From contig CAZCUC010000002.1 in assembly GCA_964502225.1 (NCBI GenBank), forward strand, positions 9,092 through 73,091: a DNA stretch of 64,000 nt. Reading direction: 5' to 3'. Numbering within the stretch: the first letter of the stretch is position 1; each line of letters starts with the position of its first letter. The translations under genes and the position numbers were made by a program. Source of the DNA: an uncultured Pseudomonadales bacterium (lineage in GTDB: Bacteria; Patescibacteriota; Microgenomatia; UBA1400; UBA12108). The notes beneath the pieces are model-generated. The model saw nothing but the letters and a program-made list of their open reading frames with translations, was not told the DNA's origin and searched no databases. Positions 6,408 through 64,000 of this stretch are shown here, piece after piece.

Positions 6408-7444
6408 ATAACCTCCATAGTGCCACTATACATGCCCATAGAACAAGAGAAAGTATAGATACCCTTTTTGTCGGGAGTGAATGTAAAGACTTGATTGGTA
6501 TTGGGTTTAACAAAAGCATTGATACCAAAGGCGCGGAAAGTAAAAGCGGTAGCACAAGAGTAAACCTCGCCTGCATTTACTGTCAGTTTGACAGGGATAC
6601 CATTTTTTACAGCGAAATGTCTAGGCGAATAGCCACTATTCAAGATATTTATGGTAACTGGCTGGACGCCATCGACTAGGCTGGGAGTCGGGATGACCCT
6701 CTCTGTAGATTGGTCGTAGGGAGGCAAAAGTTTGACTATCCTAGGACCTAGCCGCTCGAGAGAATAGTTGCTGTCCATAACCTGGAGGATTCCGTTGAAT
6801 GAGTAGAGTGCCATGGCGATTAAGAGTACGGCGGCAGTACGGAGGAAGTAAATGCGCCAGACCTCACTGAGCTTGGCGGTCGCGATACCGATCAATACAA
6901 ACATGGGGGCAGTCCCCAGGACAAAAGTCCCCATAATCAGTGCACCCTGGAGAGGAGAGCCAGAACTGATGGCAAGGATCTCCATGGCCTGTGTGACTCC
7001 GCAGGGGATAAGAATAGTCAAGAATCCAAGGAGCCCGGGAGCGAACAATCGATCGGCTGTAGTATTATTCTTGATCAGTTTGCGCGCAAATTTGGGCGGG
7101 GTAAACGCCATAAAGCGGAAAATTGGGTGCACTTCGAGTAGGTTCATGGCAGAGGCAAACATGAAGAGCGCGGCAAAACCTTGGAAGAAGAGTCGCATGC
7201 TGAGGGAGAGTGTGATAGCAGATCCAAGCCAGCCGAGGAAAAAACCGAGGATGGTGTGGGCGATGAGTTTGGTCACAAGGAATGCAGTGACTCCTGCCCA
7301 GTCGTCTGCGCCGAAGCCTGGCTCTACTTTAAGCTTTTTTTGATTGGCGATGGTAGAGGCGAGGATCCCTCCTTGCATGGCGGCGCAGGTTACACCACCA
7401 CTGGTTAGACCAGTCAATAAAATGAGCCATAGATTCATATACAA
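6404..7444 (-). CDS. Polytopic permease with duplicated Cys motifs fused to a C-terminal cupredoxin-like domain, putative Cu transporter
   Basis: About 8 TM helices carrying two related motifs, GVTCAAMQGG and IPCGVTQAME. The C-terminal roughly 100 aa (VKLTVNAGEVYSCATAF...YTFSCSMGMYSGTMEV) looks like a Cupredoxin_1-type domain. Embedded in the cop operon. Confidence 0.5.
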   Translation of the reverse strand: MYMNLWLILLTGLTSGGVTCAAMQGGILASTIANQKKLKVEPGFGADDWAGVTAFLVTKLIAHTILGFFLGWLGSAITLSLSMRLFFQGFAALFMFASAMNLLEVHPIFRFMAFTPPKFARKLIKNNTTADRLFAPGLLGFLTILIPCGVTQAMEILAISSGSPLQGALIMGTFVLGTAPMFVLIGIATAKLSEVWRIYFLRTAAVLLIAMALYSFNGILQVMDSNYSLERLGPRIVKLLPPYDQSTERVIPTPSLVDGVQPVTINILNSGYSPRHFAVKNGIPVKLTVNAGEVYSCATAFTFRAFGINAFVKPNTNQVFTFTPDKKGIYTFSCSMGMYSGTMEVI

Positions 7445-11363: not shown

Positions 11364-12020
11364 CTAAATATTCGAGGAATTAGAGTTATTATTTTTTACG
11401 TCGATTATTTTGAATGAGTCGTCTTTGACTTCAACGTATTGAGTATCGGTGAGCATAATATATGGATAGTTTTCGTTATAACTGTTTGGAATTTTATATT
11501 CAAAACAATAATCTTTCTTTTTTACATCACCCCAATGAGGCATAACAACAAAATTGACTAGATTCAGCCCTTTCGTGCTCGCTAAATTGTACATATCAGC
11601 AGACTTACCAGGCCTATTAACAGATGATGTGTCGGGACCAGCAAGAATAGAGCCTGCACTAGTTCCTATATAAATTAATCCTTCCTCTACCTTTCTTTTA
11701 ACAAACTCAATGAAATTATTCTTTTGAGCTTCTTGCTGTAAGTAAAAAGGATTACCACCTTCAATGTACATAATGTCGTATTTATCCAAATCTAAAACTA
11801 TTTGCTCGGCCGACTTGCCCGCAATATCGTACATGTCAAAAACAAAGCCTGATTCCTCCATTTTTGACTTGTTCAGTTTGTGCCAATCAAGATTTGAATG
11901 TACTTGATCACGAATAGTCGTGTCGATAAATACGGCTTTCAGCTTAACCTCATCCCCAAGTGTTTCGGCGATCTTATCGGCAACGTGCTGTACCTGTGAA
12001 GTCAAAAAAAGTCTTTTCAT
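11364..12020 (-). CDS. Peptidase S51 (dipeptidase E-like), paralog 2
   Basis: IEGGNPFYLQ and YIGTSAGSILAGPD motifs. Confidence 0.7.
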   Translation of the reverse strand: MKRLFLTSQVQHVADKIAETLGDEVKLKAVFIDTTIRDQVHSNLDWHKLNKSKMEESGFVFDMYDIAGKSAEQIVLDLDKYDIMYIEGGNPFYLQQEAQKNNFIEFVKRKVEEGLIYIGTSAGSILAGPDTSSVNRPGKSADMYNLASTKGLNLVNFVVMPHWGDVKKKDYCFEYKIPNSYNENYPYIMLTDTQYVEVKDDSFKIIDVKNNNSNSSNI

Positions 12021-12661
12021 TTCTCTCTCCTGACATCGACAATTTTAAATTGGATGCCTACTACCTCAACATATTGGTCGTTGTTTAGAGTGATCAGTGG
12101 AGTCCTCTCTTTATACATCGGCTCAAGATTATTTGTGAGATATGATTTTTTGAAAATATCACTACCCCAATGTGGAAGTACACAGAAATTCACTAAGTTG
12201 TAGCCAGCATACCCATTCAATTCAGGGGCAAGCCTGACATCGTCGATACCTAAAATTGGTTCTAAATCTGGCCCTGCGATAACTGACCCTGCACTACTAC
12301 CGATGTAAGGTAGTCCATTTTCTACTTTTTCCTGGATGATTTTGATAAAGCCTGTTTTTTGAGATTCTTGGAGTAAGTAAAAGGTGTTTCCTCCTGACAT
12401 AAAAATAACGTCTATAGAGGCTAAAGCATCACTTAGCTGCTTTTCAGATTTACCACTGACTGAAAATTCAATAACATCAAATCCTGCACTCCTGAGTCCA
12501 TTCATATCATCTTCATACCATGAGAGATCTTGTCGCACCTTGTCTTCTGTGGCAGTTTTTATGCATAGTGTTTTAAGTGGAGAAGACTTTCCGATTTTCT
12601 TAAATATATCCTGGGTGACTGTGCGATTTTCAATACTGCTGGCCAGGAAAAGATGCTTCAT
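12017..12661 (-). CDS. Peptidase S51 (dipeptidase E-like), paralog 3, in tandem with and 4-nt overlapping paralog 2
   Basis: MSGGNTFYLL and YIGSSAGSVIAGPD motifs. Confidence 0.7.
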   Translation of the reverse strand: MKHLFLASSIENRTVTQDIFKKIGKSSPLKTLCIKTATEDKVRQDLSWYEDDMNGLRSAGFDVIEFSVSGKSEKQLSDALASIDVIFMSGGNTFYLLQESQKTGFIKIIQEKVENGLPYIGSSAGSVIAGPDLEPILGIDDVRLAPELNGYAGYNLVNFCVLPHWGSDIFKKSYLTNNLEPMYKERTPLITLNNDQYVEVVGIQFKIVDVRREK

Positions 12662-22058: not shown

Positions 22059-22649
22059 TTATCTAGAAATGCGTTGTGAGTTGAGAAAATATTCCTGTAT
22101 TTCCTTATAGCTATTTTCTATTAGTATTCGACTTGAAATAGCAAAGATTTCGATAAGTGTGCCACTTTTCTCACCAATACGCCTTTTGACATCCAAAGGT
22201 CTGCTATTTTTATCTTGTACTAAGACGATGTCAACGTCATAGTAAAATTCATTTGCAGATGGTGGACTCATGTCTACATATTGCTCAAATTCTGGAATTG
22301 GCAGAACGTCTCTACCGTCGATATTGGCACCTAAAATAGGGAGATTGCTAGCGAGATAAGCTATAGATTTTTCACTGAGTTCATGACCCCAGTACCGCTT
22401 TAATTTAGAGTGGTTCCAGTAAATTTTACCTACTTGTCTACTTCCTACTAATCCTACATATTCTGGTTCAGAATTATTTCTTGAGTAATGGTCAATAAAT
22501 CCCCATATATCAATTATTTCGCTGACGTTGCGAACATGCGAGCCTACCTTTAAAGGTCCTAGGAAAGGTCTTTCGTTTAACTGATTTTTCCATTTCTCGT
22601 GATTAAGTTGTGGTGATAAATGATCTGGAGTCATGTTAACATTATACAC
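22059..22649 (-). CDS. Hypothetical protein just downstream of the tRNA-Gln 3' end
   Basis: ORF only, no motif recognised. Confidence 0.3.
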   Translation of the reverse strand: MYNVNMTPDHLSPQLNHEKWKNQLNERPFLGPLKVGSHVRNVSEIIDIWGFIDHYSRNNSEPEYVGLVGSRQVGKIYWNHSKLKRYWGHELSEKSIAYLASNLPILGANIDGRDVLPIPEFEQYVDMSPPSANEFYYDVDIVLVQDKNSRPLDVKRRIGEKSGTLIEIFAISSRILIENSYKEIQEYFLNSQRISR

Positions 22650-53868: not shown

Positions 53869-55401
53869 TTATTTGGCGACTTGCTGGGCGCGGGTCTCAC
53901 GAATGGTCGTGACCGTCACGGTACCTGGATAGGTCAGCTTGGCTTTGATCTCGTCGCGGATGTCGCTGGCCAGTCTGACGGCTTCGTCGTCGGTAGCCTT
54001 ACCTGGATCGACCATAACACGCACTTCGCGTCCGGCTGAGATGGCGTAGGCTTCAAATACCCCTGGTTTGCTCATAGCGATGTCTTCGATGGCTTTCAAG
54101 CGCTTGACGTACTCGGCGACGTTCTCGTAGCGAGCACCTGGGCGTGAACCGGAGATGGCGTCAGAGATATAAACCAAGATGGCTTCTTTGCTCGTAAACT
54201 CGACATCTTCGTGATGCTGAGCGACACAGTCCACAACAGCTTTGGGCATGTTGTATTTCTCTAGTAGCTTGACACCGAGCTCGACGTGACTACCCTCTTC
54301 ATCGGTCACGATCTTGCCGATATCGTGGAAAAGACAACCGAGTCGGACGATGTCGACGTTGGCGTGCGTCTCAGCCGCCAAGTTCATGCCGATACGGGTT
54401 TCTTCGAGGGTGTGAGCCAACATGTTTTGGCCATAACTAGAGCGGAACTTGAACCGACCGAGCATGGCGATCAGATCGGTGGGAAGATTGTAGGCACCTA
54501 CCATGTGGCAGAGTTTTTTGCCTTCTTCAAACATGATTTTTTCGATATCGTGACGAGCTTTGGCGACGTATTCCTCGATGCGAGTAGGCTGGATACGACC
54601 GTCCTTGATCAACCGTTCGAGGGCGACACGGGCCACCTCGCGACGAACCCCGTCGTAACACGACAACCTGACTTCACCGGGAGTTTCGTCCATGTCGATA
54701 TCGACACCAGTGACTTTTTCGAAAGTACGGATATTCCTACCCTCTTTGCCGATAATGCGACCTTTGACGTCGTCATCGGCGATCTTGACGGTCGAAATGG
54801 TAAACTCGGCAACGTACTCGGTAGAACCATGGTACATGGCATCGATGAGAAGACTTTGGGCTTTTTCTTCGACAGATTCCTTGATTTCGTCTTCGGCGGT
54901 GCGGATACGCTCGGCTACATCGCGTGCGAGTTTTTTGTCCACGGCAGAAAGCAAAACATCTTTGGCTTTTTCTTTGGTGAGTCCACCGATCTTCTCTAGT
55001 TTTTCGACTTGTTTGAGACGGAGTTCGGCGATTTCGGCTTTAGTTTTTTCGATTTCGGCTAATCTAGACTTTATTTCGTTGTCTTTTTTGACTAGCTCGG
55101 CCTCGCGAGCAACAATTAAATCCTCGGCACGCTTGAGTTTGTCTTCTTGACTCCTCAATGTACTTTGGAGTGCTTGCATCTCGACTTTGGCTGTTTCTCT
55201 GATTTTGTCGGCTTGCTCACGAGCAAATGCCAAGACTTCTTTAGCGGTACTCTCGGCTTGCTTTAATATTTCGGTGTTTTCGGCTGATTTTTGAGCCTCT
55301 TTCTTCACGGGAGCTGTGACTTTGACAGCCTTGGGGGTTTCAACTTTAGCTTTTTTGGCTTTGTTAAAAGTGGCAAGTAATGACTTGAGTAATATCGACA
55401 T
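53869..55401 (-). CDS. rny: Ribonuclease Y
   Basis: N-terminal TM, long coiled coil, KH domain (GRIIGKEGRNIR), HD domain (LFHDIGK). Confidence 0.9.
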   Translation of the reverse strand: MSILLKSLLATFNKAKKAKVETPKAVKVTAPVKKEAQKSAENTEILKQAESTAKEVLAFAREQADKIRETAKVEMQALQSTLRSQEDKLKRAEDLIVAREAELVKKDNEIKSRLAEIEKTKAEIAELRLKQVEKLEKIGGLTKEKAKDVLLSAVDKKLARDVAERIRTAEDEIKESVEEKAQSLLIDAMYHGSTEYVAEFTISTVKIADDDVKGRIIGKEGRNIRTFEKVTGVDIDMDETPGEVRLSCYDGVRREVARVALERLIKDGRIQPTRIEEYVAKARHDIEKIMFEEGKKLCHMVGAYNLPTDLIAMLGRFKFRSSYGQNMLAHTLEETRIGMNLAAETHANVDIVRLGCLFHDIGKIVTDEEGSHVELGVKLLEKYNMPKAVVDCVAQHHEDVEFTSKEAILVYISDAISGSRPGARYENVAEYVKRLKAIEDIAMSKPGVFEAYAISAGREVRVMVDPGKATDDEAVRLASDIRDEIKAKLTYPGTVTVTTIRETRAQQVAK

Positions 55402-55552
55402 ATGTCTCCTAAAAAACTGTTATATACATTCAAGAAAAACGCTTACCAAAAACCAAAAAAACCACTTATGCTTTGACTGCTGGACTTAGTGAATAAAATT
55501 TAGTCATGTTTTTTGTATTTTTGTAATATCTTTCTTAAAAGGTACCCTCATT

Positions 55553-56173
55553 CTACTCTGATTCCCAATTTTTGACAACCTCGGTGATCTTGTCCCAGGC
55601 GAAACCCTGGCGAGCCAAATACCCCACTATTTTTTGCTTTTCGGCAGGCTCGAGCCGATGAGGCAACCCGAGTTTTTTCTCTAGGAGATGATAGATCGTG
55701 GCTGACTCATCGCTGATAGAACCTGATACTGCCTGGATAATGTCCTCGGCGATTCCCTTGGCTTTGAGCTCAGCGCTTAAATAGCGTTTAGAGCGAGGAC
55801 GATGCGAGTTGCGGGAGGAGATAAACCACTCTGCAAATGCGCGATCGTCGAGGTAGCCATGACTTTGGAGCCTGGCGATGATGACGTCTTGCTTGGCGGA
55901 CTCTCTGAGTTCGTACTTCCAGAGTCGATCTCTAACTTCTTTCACCGTGCGGGGACGGTACGAGAGGAAATTGAGGATCTTGGAGTAGAGATATTCATCT
56001 TGATCGGCAGACTTTAACTGCTCAATCAAATCTGGACTGATTTCTAGTCCTTTCTTGAGATTATGTCTGGCGACTTCATCGATAGAAAGCGCAAAAGCAA
56101 ACTCGTCGTCCAAATAAAGATTGACCCGGTTGGGATTCTTCTTGCCTTGGACTAGACGCGTGACTATTGGCAT
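55553..56173 (-). CDS. recX: RecX regulatory protein
   Basis: Lies downstream of recA. Three-helix repeat pattern NRVNLYLDDEFAFALSIDEV... typical of RecX. Confidence 0.7.
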   Translation of the reverse strand: MPIVTRLVQGKKNPNRVNLYLDDEFAFALSIDEVARHNLKKGLEISPDLIEQLKSADQDEYLYSKILNFLSYRPRTVKEVRDRLWKYELRESAKQDVIIARLQSHGYLDDRAFAEWFISSRNSHRPRSKRYLSAELKAKGIAEDIIQAVSGSISDESATIYHLLEKKLGLPHRLEPAEKQKIVGYLARQGFAWDKITEVVKNWESE

Positions 56174-56718
56174 TATTTTAGATCGATTGTTTGGGCTAGT
56201 TTTTCTAGCGCCCTACGACGCATATTATTGTCTTCACTTAATTTTTCCTCTACTGACATTTCGGCAAAAGTTTTGGAGGATCCTGTAGGCATAAAAATAG
56301 AATCCCAGCCAAATCCGTTGGAACCCCTTGACTCTACAATAACACCATCGACACTACCTTCAAAGAAGGATATGTCACCGTTCTGGCTGATGTACCCGAA
56401 AATCGAGACCGCAGTTGCTGTGTTATTGCCTATCTGCGTGGCTAAACTGGATAAACCCTCTACTCCAAGCGATTTCATAAACCACTTAATTAGTGGACCT
56501 GGCAATCCATTTAATCCTTTGAAGTAGAGCGAAGTATCCTCTACGAGGATTTCACCGAGACAATTTTTTTGAGCCTCTTTAAGTTTTGCAGTGATAATAT
56601 CTTTCGCATCATTTGATTGAACTTCTACTAGATCAATTGGCAGTTGTTCAACTGATGGTAGATAAGATTTTACTTCGGCAAACTTTCCAGCATTGCCTGT
56701 CACAAAATATAAAGTCAT
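56173..56718 (-). CDS. rdgB: Non-canonical purine NTP pyrophosphatase (RdgB/HAM1)
   Basis: LYFVTGNAGKFAEV N-terminal motif and FGWDSIF. Start at the internal Met 56718 to clear recA. Confidence 0.8.
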   Translation of the reverse strand: MTLYFVTGNAGKFAEVKSYLPSVEQLPIDLVEVQSNDAKDIITAKLKEAQKNCLGEILVEDTSLYFKGLNGLPGPLIKWFMKSLGVEGLSSLATQIGNNTATAVSIFGYISQNGDISFFEGSVDGVIVESRGSNGFGWDSIFMPTGSSKTFAEMSVEEKLSEDNNMRRRALEKLAQTIDLK

Positions 56719-56726
56719 AGATAAAT

Positions 56727-57791
56727 TTACTCCGCTAGTTTTTCCTGATCTTTTTCGACTTTTTTGATTTTGTCCCAAATAGCTTTTTCAAGCTTTTCCA
56801 TGAGCTCAGGCTTTTCTTCAAGAAGCGCCTTGGTAGCTTCCCTCCCCTGGGCGAGCATGGTGCCATCGTATTTGAAGAATGAGCCGGACTTTTCGATAAT
56901 GCCTTTGTCGACTGCAACGTCGAGGATACCACCAGAGCGAGAAATGCCACTTTCGGTCATATCAAACTCGGCCACCTTGAAGGGGGGCGAGACTTTGTTT
57001 TTGACAATTTTGGCCCGATGATGAGAGCCAATGATGACATCACCCTCGGTAATGTTGCCGATTTTGCGCATGTCGATACGAACCGAGGAATAAAATTTGA
57101 GTGCCTGGCCACCGGCAGTTGTTTCTGGGTTGCCAAACATGACCCCGATCTTCATGCGGAGCTGATTGGTAAAGATCATGACGGTATTGCTCTTGCTGAT
57201 CGCACCAGTTAGTTTGCGCAGTGCTTGAGACATGAGGCGGGCTTGCATACCCATCACGGCGTCACCCATCTCTCCCTCGATTTCGGCTTTGGGAACCAAG
57301 GCGGCGACAGAGTCGACCACAATGACATCGACAGCACCGGAGCGGATCAAGGTCTCGGCGATCTCTAAGGCCTGCTCACCGGTATCTGGCTGAGAAATAA
57401 GGAGCTCGTCGAGATTGACGCCCACGGCACGAGCACGAGCAGGATCGAGTGCATGCTCGGCATCGATAAAGGCGGCAGTACCACCAGCTTTTTGAGCCTG
57501 GGCGATGACATGGAGACAGACAGTGGTTTTGCCACTGGCTTCTGGGCCGTAGATCTCGGTGATGCGACCGCGGGGGAACCCGCCGATACCTAGTGCGAGA
57601 TCGAGAGCCATGGCCGAGGTGGGGATAGAGGCGATGTCCATATGGTGAGAGGTGCCGAGCTTCATGATGGAGCCAGTACCAAACTGCTTGTCGATCTGCT
57701 CCATGGCCACTTTAATTGCCTGAAGTTTCTCTGATTGTAGTGCGCTCTTTGGTGCTACAGTTTTATCTGCTTTGTCGCTATTTTTTGCCAT
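56727..57791 (-). CDS. recA: Recombinase RecA
   Basis: Walker [10 protein letters not shown] and the [31 protein letters not shown] core. Confidence 0.95.
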
Positions 57792-57914
57792 ATATTCCTT
57801 TCTTTAAATAATTATTTATTACGGTTAATTAATCTCAGTATATCCTACTATCGGACTAGTTTGCATTTTTGTTATATTTTGTTATACTCTCCTTATCACG
57901 ATGACTGGACTAGC

Positions 57915-58451
57915 CTAAGGTTTCGACCGACCGCGAATGCCAGTCTTTTGATATTCAAGTGCTTTTCTCAGTAAATCAATCCTTACGATATAGCTATCCT
58001 TATTAAATCTCCTGAGTAAACTGGAGTAGTGATTTGTGGGTGCTAATACTTTTAATAACTTCTTATTTGCTTCGAGATATTCTACTAAACAGAAAAAATC
58101 GCCATCTCCTGAGACAATGATCGCCTTGTCGTAGTGCTTGTACTCGATCATGGTGTGTAATACCAGTTCGGCATCGACATTCCCTTTTACAATGACTTTA
58201 TCACCCTCTTTGTGTTCAAGAGTTGGTTTGAAAATGCAAATATATCCTGCTTTCTTAAGTGAAGCGTAGAGTGGTTCGTTGCCTTGGATAAGACCGATAA
58301 ACAAGTAAGCTTTAGACACATGATATTTGTCGGTTAAGTAGCGGCGAAACTTGGCGAAATCTAGCGTCCAACCCTGAGACTTGACACCTAGGTTAAGGTT
58401 TTGACTATCAATAAAGGCGTAAACTATTTTTTCTTTCGTTTTCTTTTCCAT
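57915..58451 (-). CDS. NYN/LabA-like PIN-fold domain protein
   Basis: IVYAFIDSQNLNLG...AIIVSGDGDF, conserved NYN acidic residues. Confidence 0.65.
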   Translation of the reverse strand: MEKKTKEKIVYAFIDSQNLNLGVKSQGWTLDFAKFRRYLTDKYHVSKAYLFIGLIQGNEPLYASLKKAGYICIFKPTLEHKEGDKVIVKGNVDAELVLHTMIEYKHYDKAIIVSGDGDFFCLVEYLEANKKLLKVLAPTNHYSSLLRRFNKDSYIVRIDLLRKALEYQKTGIRGRSKP

Positions 58452-58526
58452 GCTTCCAATTTATCCCAAACACTACCCGAATGTCAACGGGATCAAAATA
58501 TCACGTCACTTATTAATTTGTGTAAT

Positions 58527-59087
58527 TTATGTCAATAATTCAGGAAGTCCAATTCTGGATAAGTATCCTGAGAATCTTTGAGATAGTTCCTCACGGAACA
58601 ATTCACTTAAACTTGCCAAGTAAATTTCCTTCTTTCTATCGTATAGAAATTTTCTAGGTAATGTAAAAAAGTGCTTAAAATCTAATATTAATTCTGGAAT
58701 TAAGTAGTCTTCATGCTTACTTAAATAATGATATCTTTTATACTCATCATTTTTTCTTAGTTTCTCTAACTCCCGGTTACTAAAAACTCTCATTGGCCAA
58801 TCATCGATTTGTTTGCCTAGTGCAAATTGTTCTATGTGATATGCGGGACATACCAGCATTGATCTTAAATACTTGTCATTATTACTTTCCTTGCCGCGAC
58901 TATTGTAATCTTGTTCTATATCACAGTCTTGACTAAGTATTACTGCATATTCTAAAGAAACATGATCCTTTTCTGTATCTAATCCAGCATCACCCACAAC
59001 GAAATCGAGGTCTTTCAGTATGTCTCCTTGATATAGTCTTGAATTAGGACTTTTCCTATACTTCTTTTTAATCTTGCTTTTGAGCAT
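58527..59087 (-). CDS. Hypothetical protein C (186 aa) of the low-GC island
   Basis: ORF in about 31% GC DNA with basic termini and a central acidic D/E cluster (LSQDCDIEQD). Nothing recognised. Confidence 0.4.
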   Translation of the reverse strand: MLKSKIKKKYRKSPNSRLYQGDILKDLDFVVGDAGLDTEKDHVSLEYAVILSQDCDIEQDYNSRGKESNNDKYLRSMLVCPAYHIEQFALGKQIDDWPMRVFSNRELEKLRKNDEYKRYHYLSKHEDYLIPELILDFKHFFTLPRKFLYDRKKEIYLASLSELFREELSQRFSGYLSRIGLPELLT

Positions 59088-59259
59088 AGTTAATTGTACC
59101 GAAAGATGTTCTTTTTACAGTGTAGCTTTGATTATCACGGGAAAGAACTGCGTCTGTTTCGTCAGGATAACCATTTTCAGTTGTTTGAGGTGTCCCTGAG
59201 AAATCCTGATAATCCGTAGAATCGGCATGATTTGGTTGATATATATTTAATCCATCCAT
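59068..59259 (-). CDS. Small acidic low-complexity protein B (63 aa) of the low-GC island
   Basis: Short ORF between genes A and C on the same strand. Overlaps C by 20 nt. Coding status uncertain. Confidence 0.25.
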   Translation of the reverse strand: MDGLNIYQPNHADSTDYQDFSGTPQTTENGYPDETDAVLSRDNQSYTVKRTSFGTINYAQKQD

Positions 59260-59262
59260 ATA

Positions 59263-60015
59263 CTATTTATTCATCAGACTTCTTAAGCCATCTTTTATGG
59301 ATAATTCGAACAAACTTAGTATTTTAGAATGATAATTTTCAAGAACATCATTCAAGTATAAACCTTCAACATCTAATGGAAATTTTGAGTAAACGTTGTA
59401 ATCTAGGATAAAAAATTTATCAACTATTTCGCTTGGAAATTTTGGATTCCAAAGGCCGTAATTCAAGCGAATATCTCCAACTTCATCCTTAATTACTATT
59501 AATCCCATTAATCTAGCAAGTGATTTACTATTCTCTATAGCAAAACTGATTGGTCCCAACATTTTTTCGTTAATGTATTTATTCCAATTTAAAGGATCTT
59601 CTTCCTCTATTTTAATTTCATTAATAAAGCGGAGTCTTAGTTTCGTTACTGTATTAATTTTAAATTTTTTTACAAAATCTTCAACAATTGGAATACTCTC
59701 AATAACCTGCTTAAATCCAACGTATTCCGAATACTCAATCGTCAAGGAAACGGGTGAAAAGTTAATTTTAGTTCTTCGTGACTTATCGTAGATATTCCAC
59801 GCTGAAATTGCATGTGCAACCTGTTTAACTTCTTTGGTTTTGAAGTTAAAGTTTATCAATCCTTCTGCACCTGAAACTTCTTCAATTATGGGAAATTCTT
59901 TTTCGTATTTGGTATGAAAAGCCTTTAGTTTTCCCAACTCAACTTTATCAAAATCTATACCCAAAACGACTTTTTTTAGAAAGTTTCGTTTATACGTCAT
60001 AATTATCTCCGTCAA
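59263..60015 (-). CDS. Hypothetical protein A (250 aa) of the low-GC island
   Basis: Long ORF in low-GC DNA. Possible resemblance to uncharacterised conserved families (a TIGR04255-type impression only). No motif. Confidence 0.4.
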   Translation of the reverse strand: MTEIIMTYKRNFLKKVVLGIDFDKVELGKLKAFHTKYEKEFPIIEEVSGAEGLINFNFKTKEVKQVAHAISAWNIYDKSRRTKINFSPVSLTIEYSEYVGFKQVIESIPIVEDFVKKFKINTVTKLRLRFINEIKIEEEDPLNWNKYINEKMLGPISFAIENSKSLARLMGLIVIKDEVGDIRLNYGLWNPKFPSEIVDKFFILDYNVYSKFPLDVEGLYLNDVLENYHSKILSLFELSIKDGLRSLMNK

Positions 60016-60168
60016 CTACGAATTGTATCACATCTAAATAACGAGGGTTTCAATAAGATTCCCATGATTGCAGATAACAAAAACAGGATAGGTTTAGCGC
60101 TTGGGTGATTGCTTGGTGCGGCGAGTCATCCTACGCTAAAGCTACGGACTGACTGCGAACAAGAAAGA

Positions 60169-60630
60169 TTAACGTTTCGGTGATTGTTTCGTTCTTCTGG
60201 CCTTGCCACCGGTGCCGATCATGCGGCGCTGACGGGTGCGAGAGTCGCGAGTCAAGAGACCAGCGGATTTGAGAATACTGCGGAAAGCTTCTTTGTCGAG
60301 CGCTGATAGAGATCTGGCAATACCGTGGACAGTGGCATCGAGCTGACCCATTTTGCCGGATCCAGCCACTACGACTGAAGCGGACATTTTGGTTAGAGTT
60401 TCTGTGATGATAAAAGGTTTGCGATAAGCGGCTTTGGCAGTTTCCCCTGGGAAATACTGCTCTGCTGGCTTGCCATTGACGATCATTTGGATACCATCAA
60501 AACCAGGAACACTAGCAGATTTGTACAGTCGAACGCGAGCGTTGGCGGTTTTCCTGCGACCAACAGCGTAGGTGTAATTAGCTTTACTAGTGGTTTTACT
60601 GGTGGTTTTTTTGACGGTTTCTTTAGCCAT
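60169..60630 (-). CDS. rpsI: 30S ribosomal protein S9
   Basis: YAVGRRKTANARVRL...GGKARRTKQSPKR C-terminus. Confidence 0.9.
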   Translation of the reverse strand: MAKETVKKTTSKTTSKANYTYAVGRRKTANARVRLYKSASVPGFDGIQMIVNGKPAEQYFPGETAKAAYRKPFIITETLTKMSASVVVAGSGKMGQLDATVHGIARSLSALDKEAFRSILKSAGLLTRDSRTRQRRMIGTGGKARRTKQSPKR

Positions 60631-60633
60631 AGG

Positions 60634-61062
60634 TTAATCCTCTTTTTTAAATTGAGCAGTATGTGGATGGACATCTGACTTGTATACTTTTAAGCGAGAC
60701 ATACGTGGATCCTGGAGCTTGTTCTTGGCAAGCATACCGTTTACGGCGTGCTCAATGACTTTGCGTGGATCACGATCCATGAGACGACCGGCAGATTCTT
60801 GACGGAATCCCCCAGGCTGACCTGAGTGGCGAGAGTATTGTTTGGCGAGCAATTTGTTGCCGGTCAATTTGATATCTTTGGCATTGATCACGACGACAAA
60901 ATCACCCATATCCATATGGGGAGTGTAGTCGACTTTGCCTTTACCAGTTAAGAGAGTAGCAATTTTGGTGGACAAACGACCTAAAGTTTGACCCTGGCAA
61001 TCGATCAAGTGCCAAACTCTTTTGATATCGGCTGTTTTTACCATGGATGTTTGTTTTTTCAT
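60634..61062 (-). CDS. rplM: 50S ribosomal protein L13
   Basis: WHLIDCQGQTLGRLSTKIATLLTGK. Confidence 0.9.
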   Translation of the reverse strand: MKKQTSMVKTADIKRVWHLIDCQGQTLGRLSTKIATLLTGKGKVDYTPHMDMGDFVVVINAKDIKLTGNKLLAKQYSRHSGQPGGFRQESAGRLMDRDPRKVIEHAVNGMLAKNKLQDPRMSRLKVYKSDVHPHTAQFKKED

Positions 61063-61574
61063 TATTTGTCGCCTCTCTTACCAGTGCGTTTAACTAATTT
61101 GGGAGCGGCTTTGGTTGCTTTAACTACTTCGGGTACTACGGCGGCTACCTTCGTTGCCTTGGGAGCTGATTTAGCCTTATTGGGCTCGTTAGCCGAATTT
61201 GATTTGGGAGTGACGACCGATTTTTTGGTGAGGGACAGACGCACGAGAGGAGCGTTGTCCCCTTTGCGGTTGCCGATCAAAGTCAGATTGGTGTAGCCAC
61301 CGCGAACCTCTTTGTAGAGAGGAGCGATCTTCTCGAAGAGCTTTTTGACCAATTTGCCTTCCTGAACATAAGCCTGCACCATACGACGATTCTGAATAGA
61401 ATCAACTTTGGCACGTGTGATAAGCTTTTCGAAAATGGGGGTAACAGCTTTGGCTTTGATTTTGGTGGTGACAATAGCCTCGTGCTCGATCATCGAGTAG
61501 ACAAGGTTTTTCATCAAAGCCAATCTAGCTTGTGAATCACGACTTAGTTTGTAACCACTAATGTGTTTTTTCAT
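61062..61574 (-). CDS. rplQ: 50S ribosomal protein L17 with Lys/Ala-rich C-terminal extension
   Basis: LSRDSQARLALMKNLVYSMIEHEAIVTTKIKAK core, plus about 50 aa of tail (KAKSAPKATKVAAVVPEVVKATKAAPK). Confidence 0.88.
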   Translation of the reverse strand: MKKHISGYKLSRDSQARLALMKNLVYSMIEHEAIVTTKIKAKAVTPIFEKLITRAKVDSIQNRRMVQAYVQEGKLVKKLFEKIAPLYKEVRGGYTNLTLIGNRKGDNAPLVRLSLTKKSVVTPKSNSANEPNKAKSAPKATKVAAVVPEVVKATKAAPKLVKRTGKRGDK

Positions 61575-61591
61575 ATATTTACGTTAATCCG

Positions 61592-62491
61592 TTATTTGGT
61601 GCGGGTAAGCCCTTTCGAAGATAAAGCTTCGTCAATTAACCCGAGCGATTTACCGCCGAGGTTTTTGACAGTTTTTAAGTCTTTGTCAGTGGCGGTAGCA
61701 AGTTCGGCGGCTGTTTTGTAACCAGCGGCTTTTAAGGCATTGGTCACACGAGTAGGTAGACCAAGATCGTCGGTCATAACGCTACTGGCAGAAGAAGGAA
61801 CAACACTGACATCTTCGGCTACAGCGGGATCGACAATTTGGTTAAAGGTAGCAACCAAGATACTAGCCGCTTCTTTGAGGACTACTGAAGGTAGACGTGA
61901 ACCATCGGTATAGATCTCCATGACAACTTTGTCAAAATCTGTGCGACGGCCGACACGAGTAGATTCTACTTTGTAGGCAACACGCTCGACGGGAGAATAG
62001 ATGGCATCGATCGACATTTGACCGATAGCTGAAGCTGGGCGTTCGTCGGCAGGAGAGTAACCATAACCAGTCCCGATTGTGAGTTCGAGATCTAGTTTGC
62101 CATCTTTACTGAGAGAGGCAATGACTGCGTCACCGTTGACGATTTTGACCGTAGCGGGGGCGACAATGTCTTTGGCGGTTACAGTGCAGGGACCTTTGGC
62201 ACTGAGTTTTGCGACAACTGTCTCGTCGCCTTCGTAGGCAACCTTGACTGATTTGAGGTTCAAAATCAAGTCAATCATATCTTCACTGAGTCCAGCTAAA
62301 GTGGAGAACTTGTGGTTGACACCGGCAACTTTGACTTCTGTAATTGCGGCACCACGGAAACTGGAAAGTAAAACACGGCGGAGTGAGTTGCCGAGAGTGT
62401 GACCGAAGCCAGTAACTAGTGGTTCAATAGAAAAAACACCATAATTTGGTTTTTCTTCGATGACTTTGACGGAAAAATTCATAGATTGCAT
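61592..62491 (-). CDS. rpoA: DNA-directed RNA polymerase subunit alpha
   Basis: GFGHTLGNSLRRVLLSS NTD motif and alpha-CTD present. Confidence 0.9.
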   Translation of the reverse strand: MQSMNFSVKVIEEKPNYGVFSIEPLVTGFGHTLGNSLRRVLLSSFRGAAITEVKVAGVNHKFSTLAGLSEDMIDLILNLKSVKVAYEGDETVVAKLSAKGPCTVTAKDIVAPATVKIVNGDAVIASLSKDGKLDLELTIGTGYGYSPADERPASAIGQMSIDAIYSPVERVAYKVESTRVGRRTDFDKVVMEIYTDGSRLPSVVLKEAASILVATFNQIVDPAVAEDVSVVPSSASSVMTDDLGLPTRVTNALKAAGYKTAAELATATDKDLKTVKNLGGKSLGLIDEALSSKGLTRTK

Positions 62492-62514
62492 GATAACCCC
62501 CTTTATATAGCTTA

Positions 62515-63126
62515 TTAACGGGAATAAAACTCCACAATTAATTGTTCGTTAATAGCCTCAATAATGTCGCTTCTTATAGGTAAGCGAGTAACCTTGCCGA
62601 GTGCGGCTTTTCTGTCTAACCAAGCGGCCGATTCTTTCTCTTTGTCGGCGAGAAGTACTTTGATATAAGGTATTTCGGTGGCGGTCTTGGAGAGAGAGAT
62701 GACGTCGTTTAGCTTAACTTTGTAGGAAGGAATATTGAGTTTTTTGCCGTTGACCATAACGTTGCCATGGCTAACCAACTGACGTGCTGAGGAGCGAGTA
62801 GGCGCAAATCCGAGTCGATAAACACAGTTGTCCAGGCGGCGCTCTAGGAGTGAAAGCATAACCTCACCAGTAGCAAGGGGATTTTTGGAGGCTTCGACAT
62901 AGTATTTTTTGAACTGGCGCTCAAGAATGCCGTAAATGTTTTTGGCTTTTTGCTTTTCGGCCAATTGGACGCCGTAATCGGAGACTTTGCGGTTACCACC
63001 TTTGCGACCGTGAGCTCCTGGGGGAGTACCAATGCGACGCTCGAGTTTGACACCACTAGTTTTGAGCCCTAGATCTACTCCGAGTCTACGAGCTTTTTTA
63101 TTTTTTGGACCAGTATAGCGAGCCAT
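62515..63126 (-). CDS. rpsD: 30S ribosomal protein S4
   Basis: MARYTGPKNKKARRLG N-terminus and S4 domain. Confidence 0.92.
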   Translation of the reverse strand: MARYTGPKNKKARRLGVDLGLKTSGVKLERRIGTPPGAHGRKGGNRKVSDYGVQLAEKQKAKNIYGILERQFKKYYVEASKNPLATGEVMLSLLERRLDNCVYRLGFAPTRSSARQLVSHGNVMVNGKKLNIPSYKVKLNDVISLSKTATEIPYIKVLLADKEKESAAWLDRKAALGKVTRLPIRSDIIEAINEQLIVEFYSR

Positions 63127-63177
63127 ATTTTTTTAGATTCCAGATTCTAGATTTTAGATTCTAGTTATAAATAATGT

Positions 63178-63549
63178 TTAGCCGTGGCGTGGCTTTTTGG
63201 CACGGGTGCCGTTGTGTGGAATAGGAGTAACATCTTGCATTTCGGTGACTTTGATCCCGATCGTACGCAGGACACGGAGAGCGGCATCGCGACCTGGACC
63301 TGGACCTTTAATAAAGACAGTAGCGGCGCGCAAACCCATACCTTTGGCGGCATCTACTGCGGCCGTGATAGCCTGGGTAGCGGCGTAAGGAGTAGACTTG
63401 CGTGAACCTTTGAAACCTACCTTGCCGGTAGAACTCCAGTTGAGGACGTTGCCTGTCGAGTCAGTTACGGTAACAACAGTGTTGTTGAAAGTAGCTAAGA
63501 TATAGATGCGACCGTCGGTAATGGTCTTGGTGTTACGGGAAATAGCCAT
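63178..63549 (-). CDS. rpsK: 30S ribosomal protein S11
   Basis: ATFNNTVVTVTDSTGN...STPYAAT. Confidence 0.92.
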   Translation of the reverse strand: MAISRNTKTITDGRIYILATFNNTVVTVTDSTGNVLNWSSTGKVGFKGSRKSTPYAATQAITAAVDAAKGMGLRAATVFIKGPGPGRDAALRVLRTIGIKVTEMQDVTPIPHNGTRAKKPRHG

Positions 63550-63550
63550 A

Positions 63551-63946
63551 TTATTTAGCTCCTCCTACTTTAGCGGCATCTTCTTTTTTCATGGCTCCGA
63601 TAGTCTTGCGCTTACCACGTAGAGTACGAGCGTTGGTTCTAGTGCGTTGACCGCGAACTGGGAGACCGACAGAGTGACGCGATCCACGATAACTACTGAT
63701 TCGCTTGAGACGCTGGATGTTTTCACGGATTTCTTTGCGGAGGTCACCTTCGACTTTGAATGATTCGAGTGCTTTCTGGAGTTTGGCAACCTGATCGGCT
63801 GTAAGATTTTTGGCGCGGATGTTGCCGTCAATTTTGCAGGTAGTGAGGAGGGTTTGAGAGATTTTTGGGCCAATACCATAAACGTAGGTCAAGGCGACCT
63901 CAATACGCTTGTTTTCTGGTAGGTCAATTCCGACTAGACGTAGCAT
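63551..63946 (-). CDS. rpsM: 30S ribosomal protein S13
   Basis: MLRLVGIDLPENKRIEVALTYVYGIG. Confidence 0.92.
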   Translation of the reverse strand: MLRLVGIDLPENKRIEVALTYVYGIGPKISQTLLTTCKIDGNIRAKNLTADQVAKLQKALESFKVEGDLRKEIRENIQRLKRISSYRGSRHSVGLPVRGQRTRTNARTLRGKRKTIGAMKKEDAAKVGGAK

Positions 63947-64000
63947 AATTTATCCTTGACGTTGTTTGTGGCGAGGATTCTCGCAAACTATAAATAAAAC

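Follow-up and report, generated by a model that had tools for sequence, protein, structure and literature searches.

Between the ribosomal-protein gene rpsI and a gene for an NYN-domain protein, the DNA that we analysed (a stretch of 64,000 nt, referred to as the window) carries three AT-rich genes. Such a locus raises three questions: whether these genes were acquired as a unit, whether they belong together with the NYN gene, and what their products might do. An earlier note on this DNA had described a low-GC island of three tightly coupled, co-directional genes, probably acquired horizontally and possibly acting in defence together with the NYN protein.

Composition and layout of the island

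The GC content of positions 58527–60015 is 31.8%, as against a window mean of 45.4% (SD 2.9%, 1.5-kb windows); at the 1.5-kb scale, this is the minimum of the window, ~4.7 SD below the mean. The flanking genes recA, rpsI and rplM have GC contents of 52.0%, 49.6% and 44.1%, respectively. Both large island genes have a GC3 of 0.27 and occupy the bottom two places among the 62 window ORFs that are 150 aa or longer (mean 0.474, SD 0.067). Computation thus bore out the low GC content that had been estimated by eye, and GC along the window is not uniform. The three co-directional ORFs are present where the earlier note had placed them, on the minus strand and tightly coupled, and the NYN gene and rpsI were both identified at the sides of the island (Table 1).

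The gap between ORF-A and ORF-B is 3 nt, and ORF-B and ORF-C overlap by 20 nt. For ORF-A, the alternative ATG at 60000, which stands behind a GGAG and yields a protein of 245 aa, is the likelier start because it fits the length and the N-terminus of the TIGR04255 family (see below). The cassette leader may carry a promoter of its own, as it contains an extended -10 element (TG-n-TACAAT) at ~60034–60026 and, 20 nt away, a TTGAAA hexamer; owing to this 20-nt spacing, the site was left unscored in the consensus scan. No intrinsic terminators were found in 57700–60300, and the hairpin that follows rpsI is not exceptional in its stability (z -1.3).

Table 1. Features of the island and its immediate surroundings (window coordinates)
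Feature	Position	Strand	Description
ORF-A	59263..60000	-	245 aa, TIGR04255; given in the ORF list as 59263-60015, 250 aa from TTG
ORF-B	59068..59259	-	63 aa, acidic (pI 4.2), low-complexity, translationally coupled to A and C
ORF-C	58527..59087	-	186 aa, MazF/CcdB-fold protein, presumed toxin/effector
Cassette leader	60001..60093	-	possible own promoter and putative GGAG ribosome-binding site, as read from the sequence
rpsI relic	60094..60125	-	remnant of an additional rpsI 3' end, bordering the insert on the rpsI side (repeat and L006 comparison)
Distal insert edge	58488..58526	-	39 nt from the ORF-C stop to resumed L006 homology (L006 alignment)
NYN gene	57915-58451	as island	PF01936, E 1e-12
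rpsI	60169-60630		neighbour of the island

Insertion next to rpsI

In the closest relative genome, L006 (recA 91% aa identity), the gene order is rpsI, ~200 bp, NYN, recA, and the island is absent. This empty-site test involves a single close relative: among 80 recA loci, L006 alone shows the rpsI-NYN-recA synteny. The absence of the island from L006 indicates that it is an insertion and that the NYN gene is a resident. We conclude that the island is a horizontally acquired insert of ~1.64 kb, extending from about 60125 to 58488; it combines the two hallmarks of a genomic island, deviant composition and absence from the orthologous site of a relative, the latter in one relative. Low GC and GC3, the empty L006 site and the foreign rpsI-end relic described below all point to acquisition, in agreement with the earlier note, and the recA–rpsI interval differs between the window and L006.

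The rpsI-side edge is formed by a short segment (60094–60125) that is the remnant of a foreign rpsI end. Its sequence, CTCGCCGCACCAAGCAATCACCCAAGCGCTAA, encodes ..RRTKQSPKR followed by a stop, and 60094–60117 forms a direct repeat (D2) with 60169–60192. The relic is 93.9% identical to the rpsI end of L006 by BLAST (30 of 32 positions as counted by eye), whereas the functional rpsI end of the window is identical at 23 of 32; over the whole gene, rpsI of the window and that of L006 are 74% identical. At the other edge, identity with L006 picks up again at TTGACATTCGGGTAGT (58487 downwards), in the promoter-like TTGACA-18-TAAATT site of the NYN gene. The rpsI-end duplication was the sole find in the search for att sites and flanking direct repeats around the island; no terminal inverted repeats were found around it, and no integrase or transposase ORF adjoins it in the 55000–64000 ORF list.

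The functional link between the island and the NYN gene that the earlier note had suggested did not survive this comparison. If the NYN nuclease acted jointly with the three island genes, they would make up a defence locus of four genes. This model could draw on the fact that the NYN gene physically adjoins them in the same direction, on its own low GC content (38.7%) and on a domain-level match to a PADLOC NYN-domain model (E 1.3e-9). It is contradicted by the empty site, since L006 has the NYN gene (78% aa identity) with the same conserved promoter; moreover, the gene is equipped with its own promoter-like site, and no NYN homologue was ever found beside the cassette in >90 other loci examined. 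Joint action of the four genes is thus hardly credible: the NYN gene lies outside the island and is a resident neighbour with no relation to it. The island itself is mobile and, for the window, dispensable.

The cassette in other genomes

The A-B-C cassette is widespread in bacteria, plasmids and phages. In all 65 metagenome loci that had sufficient sequence, ORF-A is positioned immediately upstream of ORF-C; in 70 of 72 loci, the two are bridged by an ORF of 56–100 codons that is equivalent to ORF-B. Proteins of the ORF-B type are 53–100 aa long and compositionally biased. The A-B-C order is also held in the complete cassettes of 7 of 7 IMG/VR viral contigs, on the Methylocystis plasmid NZ_CP143318.1 and at ORF-A identities of just 26–29%. 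Flanks differ at every locus, and the cassette was poorer in GC than the DNA around it at each of the non-redundant loci compared (34 of 34; median difference -8.6 points, p 1e-10). The three genes are inherited strictly together, are translationally coupled and are all under purifying selection, with median dN/dS values of 0.21 for ORF-A, 0.28 for ORF-B outside the overlap (0.14–0.19 in the closest pairs) and 0.14 for ORF-C, and ORF-A is the obligate first gene. Its recurrence in unrelated surroundings, among them viral contigs and a plasmid, upholds the view that the genes are tightly coupled as one unit.

Analysis of 150 neighbouring ORFs revealed no conserved fourth gene or partner, and no helicase or ATPase accompanies the cassette. 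Restriction-modification genes, Abi genes and integrases are frequent in its vicinity. Nearby genes encode an AbiJ-type Abi protein and a recombinase; an Mrr nuclease together with a terminase and a serine recombinase; a phage integrase; and a large serine recombinase. Restriction-modification genes of types I, IIG and II, MADS, AriA and AbiEii-like ATPases, and transposases were also seen. Many loci lie amid housekeeping genes.

The three window proteins had no match in PADLOC-DB v2.0.0 at E≤1; 150 family members gave only scattered PADLOC matches (E 0.002 or weaker) with nothing consistent, and ten further diverse members gave nothing consistent either. Beyond TIGR04255 and phrog_4575, searches of Pfam, NCBIfam, PADLOC and PHROGs returned nothing for the three proteins, and we found no description of the A-B-C cassette in the literature on MazF-like, tripartite and TBP-like systems.

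The three proteins

ORF-A is a member of TIGR04255, an uncharacterised family that NCBIfam calls 'sporadically distributed', so that the earlier statement that no motifs could be assigned fails for this protein. The match to the NCBIfam HMM (76.2 bits, cutoff 30; E 3.5e-21) is full-length, residues 8–249 aligning with positions 2–252 of the 252 in the profile, and cassette homologues are annotated as TIGR04255 in RefSeq and JGI. No Pfam domain was found in the window protein or in family members. The fold is a duplicated sheet, TBP-like/guanidino-kinase-like. In the window, ORF-A departs from the family at 7 of 38 conserved positions and has lost several near-invariant residues, because of which this copy of the cassette may not be fully functional. 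A literature search found no paper naming TIGR04255, and the literature searched makes no mention of the obligatory link between one TIGR04255 clade and a small protein plus a MazF-fold protein.

ORF-B is a fast-evolving, low-complexity protein that is yet under purifying selection. Its N-terminal part is variable and rich in K, S, D, E and T; its C-terminal motif, Y-x-K/R-T-x-V-K-R-K...Y-V-x-K-x-D, is conserved. Across five loci, the pI ranges from 4.2 to 10, and charge complementarity with ORF-C is inconsistent. ORF-B had no match in Pfam, PADLOC or NCBIfam, and Pfam detected no DNA-binding domain (RHH, HTH, AbrB or PHD) in either ORF-B or ORF-A. Its gene has the layout of a type II system, being small, adjacent, co-oriented and translationally coupled to the ORF-C gene, and ORF-B is a candidate antitoxin or adaptor. 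A type III RNA antitoxin at this position was considered and rejected: there are no tandem repeats in 59068–59262 and no Rfam match, and the ORF is under purifying selection.

The fold of ORF-C is the SH3-like barrel known from toxins of the CcdB/MazF/ToxN superfamily, with additional helical insertions. The structure check proposed earlier thus yielded a fold for this protein. Pfam, including PF02452 (PemK/MazF) and CcdB, gave nothing at E≤1 for ORF-C and nothing for 56 family members. Comparison of the ORF-C family profile with Escherichia coli MazF by hhalign produced no signal (probability 0.6%), and family-profile searches of PDB sequences were negative. ORF-C matches phrog_4575 of PHROGs (function not assigned) and belongs to an unnamed family of >2000 clusters at 50% identity, whose own set of invariant polar residues includes C55, D56, R118, H120, D136 and K138. 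In an alignment by secondary-structure order, which was made by hand and is not a measured superposition, the MazF catalytic positions, an Arg in the beta1-beta2 region and a Thr/Ser following beta3, appear to correspond to E46/Y47 and A82 of ORF-C. The canonical catalytic Arg and Thr are therefore apparently not conserved, and RNase activity of ORF-C is not assured; a non-canonical active site could be formed by Q53/C55/D56, R118/H120 and D136/K138. Its toxin fold of the MazF/CcdB type makes a role as a toxin or in defence plausible. N-terminally extended homologues of ORF-C were considered as B-C fusions and rejected, as the extensions are mutually unrelated and look like miscalled starts.

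Possible functions of the cassette

On balance, we lean towards the view that the cassette is an autonomous mobile three-gene operon encoding a tripartite toxin-antitoxin or abortive-infection-type module, with the NYN gene unrelated to it; its toxicity, the identity of its antitoxin and its role in defence are what we infer. The presence of a small upstream gene that overlaps the ORF-C gene, as in type II operons, supports a toxin-antitoxin function. The A-B-C operon would move as a unit between genomes, plasmids and phages. ORF-C would be a growth-arresting effector, acting most likely on RNA like MazF, Kid and ToxN, and ORF-B would keep it inactive through its conserved C-terminal motif in the manner of type II antitoxin tails. 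ORF-A would supply a third function on its large beta-sheet, either sensing or binding nucleic acid or a phage product, or controlling ORF-B or ORF-C enzymatically. In a small CPR genome, such a cassette might serve as an addiction or phage-exclusion element.

Several observations count against a toxin-antitoxin function: ORF-C has no sequence similarity to MazF/PemK; ORF-B has no DNA-binding domain and an inconsistent pI; there is no convincing PADLOC match, and many loci are found amid housekeeping genes; and the window ORF-A has lost several near-invariant residues.

Other divisions of labour among the three proteins have to be weighed against this tripartite module. ORF-A rather than ORF-B could be the true neutraliser of ORF-C, for example as a type VII-like enzymatic antitoxin, with ORF-B reduced to an adaptor, a substrate or a coupling peptide; ORF-A weakly resembles guanidino and protein-arginine kinases and has conserved Arg/Asp/Glu residues on beta-strands, which lends some colour to this two-partner system; we regard such a system as unlikely. 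There may also be no toxin at all, the cassette being a mobile nucleic-acid-handling accessory complex, such as an RNA-processing or ribosome-associated factor, in which the MazF-like barrel would be a binding module. Nucleic-acid binding is a generic property of the SH3-like barrel, and placement beside ribosomal-protein operons would then reflect function: the window cassette follows rpsI, that of locus L001 lies inside a ribosomal-protein operon, between the S5 gene and NUDIX/secY, and at locus L168 the L16 gene is 4 kb away; many loci elsewhere have housekeeping flanks. We consider such a complex distinctly unlikely.

A selfish or counter-defence module that serves a phage or mobile element rather than the cell, by superinfection exclusion, addiction (for prophages and plasmids) or anti-defence, the window copy being stranded and possibly decaying, would account for the complete cassettes on viral contigs and a plasmid, for the match of ORF-C to a phage protein family (phrog_4575), for the integrases and recombinases that adjoin several loci and, in the window, for the deviant ORF-A positions and the lack of an adjoining mobility gene. 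On the other hand, most loci are on ordinary chromosomal contigs, and the window ORFs are all intact, with an identical copy recovered in an independent read-set assembly. A selfish or counter-defence role seems improbable to us. Mechanistically, it overlaps with the tripartite toxin-antitoxin module that we prefer, addiction modules being toxin-antitoxin systems themselves.

Relation to known systems and significance

The tripartite module would differ from the systems described so far in several respects. ORF-C shares the barrel fold with the toxins of MazEF, Kid-Kis (PemIK) and CcdAB and has no detectable sequence similarity to them; it is ~70 residues longer, with helical insertions, and its invariant residues, including an invariant Cys, are different. 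Furthermore, ORF-B lacks a recognisable DNA-binding domain, and the operon begins with a third, obligate gene (TIGR04255, 245 aa). In type III systems (ToxIN, CptIN, AbiQ/antiQ), a tandem-repeat RNA that lies upstream of the toxin serves as antitoxin, whereas the upstream stretch here is a conserved protein-coding ORF without tandem repeats or an Rfam match. The toxin-antitoxin-chaperone system of Mycobacterium tuberculosis is similar in being a three-gene operon whose third protein is obligatorily tied to a pair of toxin and small partner; its third component is a SecB-like chaperone and its toxin is HigB-like (PMC9098466), whereas ORF-A has a duplicated TBP-like/guanidino-kinase-like sheet and ORF-C a MazF fold. 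In the recently validated anti-phage type II Gabija system, GajC, a presumed nuclease effector, has a MazF-like domain split by helices (PMC13069673); the likeness to ORF-C, a MazF-like barrel with helical interruption, is one of description, and the partner of GajC is the UvrD-type helicase GajB, whereas the present cassette has no helicase or ATPase.

The cassette provides the first testable functional context for two large uncharacterised families, TIGR04255 and that of ORF-C. If it is a toxin-antitoxin or abortive-infection system, it would represent a new architecture in the MazF superfamily and a module for defence or addiction that is common in CPR/Patescibacteria. To our knowledge, these bacteria largely lack CRISPR, and their immune repertoires are poorly known.

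With invariant Cys, His and Lys residues on a MazF scaffold, ORF-C could have a new toxin chemistry. Tentatively, one may go further and see in the cassette a new tripartite class, in which a TIGR04255 sensor or enzyme controls a MazF-fold effector via a hypervariable small protein; we regard this as possible, though doubtful. The ORF-A sheet would then bind a trigger of phage origin or modify one of its partners, ORF-B or ORF-C, covalently, and ORF-C would use a Cys/His/Lys-based site with a chemistry unlike that of MazF RNases or the gyrase poison CcdB. TIGR04255 proteins with other downstream partners are encoded by an archaeal phage and a Thermus plasmid; if the cassette does represent such a class, these proteins would mark a wider family of modular systems.

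Composition and gene layout of the island

The segment 58527–60015 has a GC content of 31.8% and is the lowest-GC 1.5-kb stretch within the 64-kb window (mean 45.4%, SD 2.9% for 1.5-kb windows). It is flanked by recA (52.0% GC) and rpsI (49.6% GC), so that the AT-richness reported in an earlier note holds on calculation. Codon composition points the same way, as the third-position GC (GC3) of 0.27 in both ORF-A and ORF-C is the lowest among the window's 62 ORFs of 150 aa or more (mean 0.474, SD 0.067). The three co-directional ORFs of that note were found on the minus strand exactly as described, with 3 nt between ORF-A and ORF-B and a 20-nt overlap between ORF-B and ORF-C. The ATG listed for ORF-A is the likelier start because it lies behind GGAG and the resulting length (245 aa) fits the family.

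Features of the island, its surroundings and other deviant regions of the window
Feature	Position	Strand	Remarks
ORF-A	59263–60015	−	likelier start ATG at 60000
ORF-B	59068–59259	−	63 aa, pI 4.2
ORF-C	58527–59087	−	186 aa
rpsI 3'-end relic	60094–60125	−	32 nt, encodes ..RRTKQSPKR*, rpsI-side edge of the insert
NYN-domain gene	57915–58451	−	resident gene
Ham1/RdgB-family NTP pyrophosphatase gene	56173–56718	−	PF01725, E 1e-39; between recA and recX
Orphan ORF	22059–22649	−	196 aa, no Pfam match
Peptidase_S51 paralogues	11364–12661	−	two, overlapping in tandem, 218 and 214 aa

Phylogenetic spread of the cassette

A word-indexed search returned 198 homologues of ORF-C, and an exhaustive profile search found representatives of 2144 clusters at 50% identity (E ≤ 1e-3; 1036 of these at ≤ 1e-10), nearly all of them stand-alone proteins of 170–220 aa. 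A TIGR04255 gene lies directly upstream of the ORF-C homologue at all 65 metagenome loci that offer 1 kb or more of upstream sequence, and an ORF of 56–100 codons spans the interval from the A stop to the C start in 70 of 72 loci. The A-B-C order is kept even in members with an ORF-A identity of only 26–29%, on the plasmid NZ_CP143318.1 of the alphaproteobacterium Methylocystis iwaonis and in all seven IMG/VR viral contigs with a relative of ORF-C. Purifying selection acts on each of the three genes (median dN/dS 0.21 in A, 0.14 in C and 0.28 in the non-overlapping part of B; B falls to 0.14–0.19 in the closest pairs).

The flanks of the cassette vary between loci. On a related CPR contig (L001, 1–11206) it is found inside the ribosomal-protein operon, with the S5 gene upstream and NUDIX/secY downstream; many genes of this contig (L5, SecY) are fragmented, which suggests a frameshift-rich assembly. 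Elsewhere, for example, it adjoins large serine recombinases, a phage integrase, an Mrr nuclease with a terminase, or an AbiJ-type Abi protein with a recombinase, or it lies behind DUF4145 and TrmB genes. Among 150 neighbouring ORFs at 32 non-redundant loci we found no conserved fourth gene; these neighbours include housekeeping genes mixed with DNA methylases, type I and IIG restriction enzymes, MADS components, AriA-like and AbiEii-like ATPases, integrases and transposases. At all 34 non-redundant loci compared, the cassette is poorer in GC than its flanks, by a median of 8.6 points (Wilcoxon p 1e-10), in hosts of 28 to 60% GC. A, B and C form one conserved, mobile cassette. It is absent from PADLOC v2.0.0, and in the literature searched by keyword TIGR04255 is named in no paper and the cassette is described nowhere; an earlier description beyond that literature is possible.

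The insertion site

A search with recA, covering one genome per species, yielded a single close relative (L006, CAJAUT010000013.1; 91% amino acid identity in recA). Its gene order is rplQ-rplM-rpsI, a spacer of ∼ 200 bp, NYN, recA and recX, and all three island genes are absent. Homology between the two sequences ends just past the rpsI stop and restarts at the NYN promoter, at about position 58487 of the window. The NYN proteins are 78% identical and a promoter-like element of this gene, TTGACATTCGGGTAGT-N-ATAAAT, is conserved. The island is an insert, and the NYN gene does not belong to it. The latter has a low GC content (∼ 37–39%) in both genomes and may have been acquired earlier.

The island has no terminal repeats, and neither an integrase nor a transposase gene adjoins it between 55000 and 64000. 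Close behind the true rpsI stop there is a relic of a second rpsI 3' end that is 93.9% identical to L006 in BLAST (30/32 by eye), whereas the window's functional rpsI end matches L006 at 23/32 positions and the whole gene is 74% identical. Judging from these alignments, the relic looks like a footprint left when the island was brought in, together with adjacent DNA, from a donor resembling L006. This donor would have had the cassette at the same position, and the segment of ∼ 1.64 kb, with its scrap of rpsI, would have been joined by homology on the NYN side and illegitimately on the other.

At this position L006 carries a 108-nt intergenic element 3' of rpsI (7128–7235 of that contig) that forms a long hairpin (−39.5 kcal/mol, z −4.8 against shuffles), and the window carries the island.

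The three proteins

The AlphaFold2 model of ORF-C, built on 67 sequences, is confident (pLDDT 89.9, pTM 0.85) and its top 50 Foldseek matches are all MazF-family toxins (E from 2.5e-4, probability 0.98–1.00, target-normalised TM 0.56–0.67). At the sequence level there is no Pfam match at E ≤ 1, a PDB sequence search came back empty and hhalign against Escherichia coli MazF gave a probability of 0.6%. ORF-C is ∼ 70 residues longer than MazF and has helical insertions. The MazF fold predicted from the model is much more secure than any inference of function. Among 244 representatives, Q53, C55, D56, R118, D136, F137, K138, R178 and P182 are invariant and Q20, H120, R165, E166 and R171 are 97–99% conserved. 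In a hand alignment by the order of secondary-structure elements, the segments QGDI, AVxLSQDCD, CPAY, RYHYL and LxxDFKH would correspond to MazF β1, β2, β3 and the following strands, and the canonical catalytic Arg and Thr of MazF appear not to be conserved; to judge by the invariant Cys, His, Lys and Asp residues, the active site may differ from that of MazF. The window's ORF-C is typical of its family (two deviations in 37 conserved columns).

ORF-A matches NCBIfam TIGR04255 over its full length, with 76 bits where the cutoff is 30. Its confident model (pLDDT 90, pTM 0.84) has two β-α-β(3–4)-α repeats forming a single large sheet, the strands of which bear conserved Arg, Asp, Asn and Glu residues (motifs RIDF, GLRYINE and FILDxD). 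PDB matches to this model are only moderate and point to no function. The window copy deviates at seven of 38 columns with at least 85% conservation (R14G, R120K, G122R, Y125F, D202N, I12V, L147M), ranking 117th of 120, possibly a sign of relaxed selection on this copy or of a diverged function.

Distant TIGR04255 homologues were also seen in a Methanobacteriales phage (BK063677; L087, 3992–5636), followed by a 160-aa ORF and a 137-aa ORF (phrog_5176), and on the Thermus brockianus plasmid pTB1 (L172, 3989–5291), followed by a 147-aa ORF and adjoining VapBC, a methylase and cas6. The differing downstream genes hint that the partners of TIGR04255 proteins vary.

ORF-B has a composition skewed towards K, S, D, E and T, and both its length (53–100 aa) and its charge vary; its C-terminal motif, Y-x-K/R-T-x-V-K-R-K-x3-Y-V-x-K-x-D, is conserved. 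Tandem repeats are absent from this stretch and Rfam gives no match, which excludes an RNA antitoxin of type III.

Possible function

The cassette is on balance probably a toxin-antitoxin or abortive-infection module, as judged from fold and context only: ORF-C, with its toxin fold, is preceded by a small, fast-evolving and translationally coupled partner, ORF-B. This architecture fits, as do the strict co-inheritance of the genes, their mobility and foreign composition, and their occurrence on plasmids and phages. Its proposed working would be most like that of the type II systems MazEF, Kid-Kis and CcdAB, although at the sequence level it falls outside these families and the small partner, unlike theirs, has no DNA-binding domain. 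Type III toxins have the same fold but rely on an RNA antitoxin that is missing here, and the toxin-antitoxin-chaperone system is likewise tripartite but has an unrelated third protein. A recent precedent for a MazF-like barrel with a helical insertion as a defence effector is GajC of type II Gabija, whose partner differs from those of the cassette (PMC13069673).

The conserved polar residues of ORF-A could suit an enzymatic, type VII-like antitoxin, which we regard as unlikely. It is somewhat less likely still that the cassette encodes a non-toxic accessory complex handling nucleic acids, and improbable that it is a selfish or counter-defence module of a phage or mobile element, a reading consistent with the viral contigs and adjoining recombinases. 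The NYN-coupled locus proposed in the earlier note is highly improbable, as the NYN gene is conserved with its promoter in the island-free relative. That note's horizontally acquired accessory module stands, with the island absent from L006 and of foreign GC content; its link to NYN falls. The island is plausibly a toxin or defence system, as far as fold and context tell. The cassette is widespread, uncharacterised and clearly delimited; its three genes include one with a confident toxin fold, and the system is directly testable.

Other anomalies in the window

Near the island, the Ham1/RdgB-family gene (38.9% GC) is apparently another small insertion, because recA and recX abut in L006 without it. 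The orphan ORF is compositionally deviant, with the third lowest GC3 in the window (0.29), and the Peptidase_S51 paralogues have GC3 values of 0.35–0.36, below the window average.
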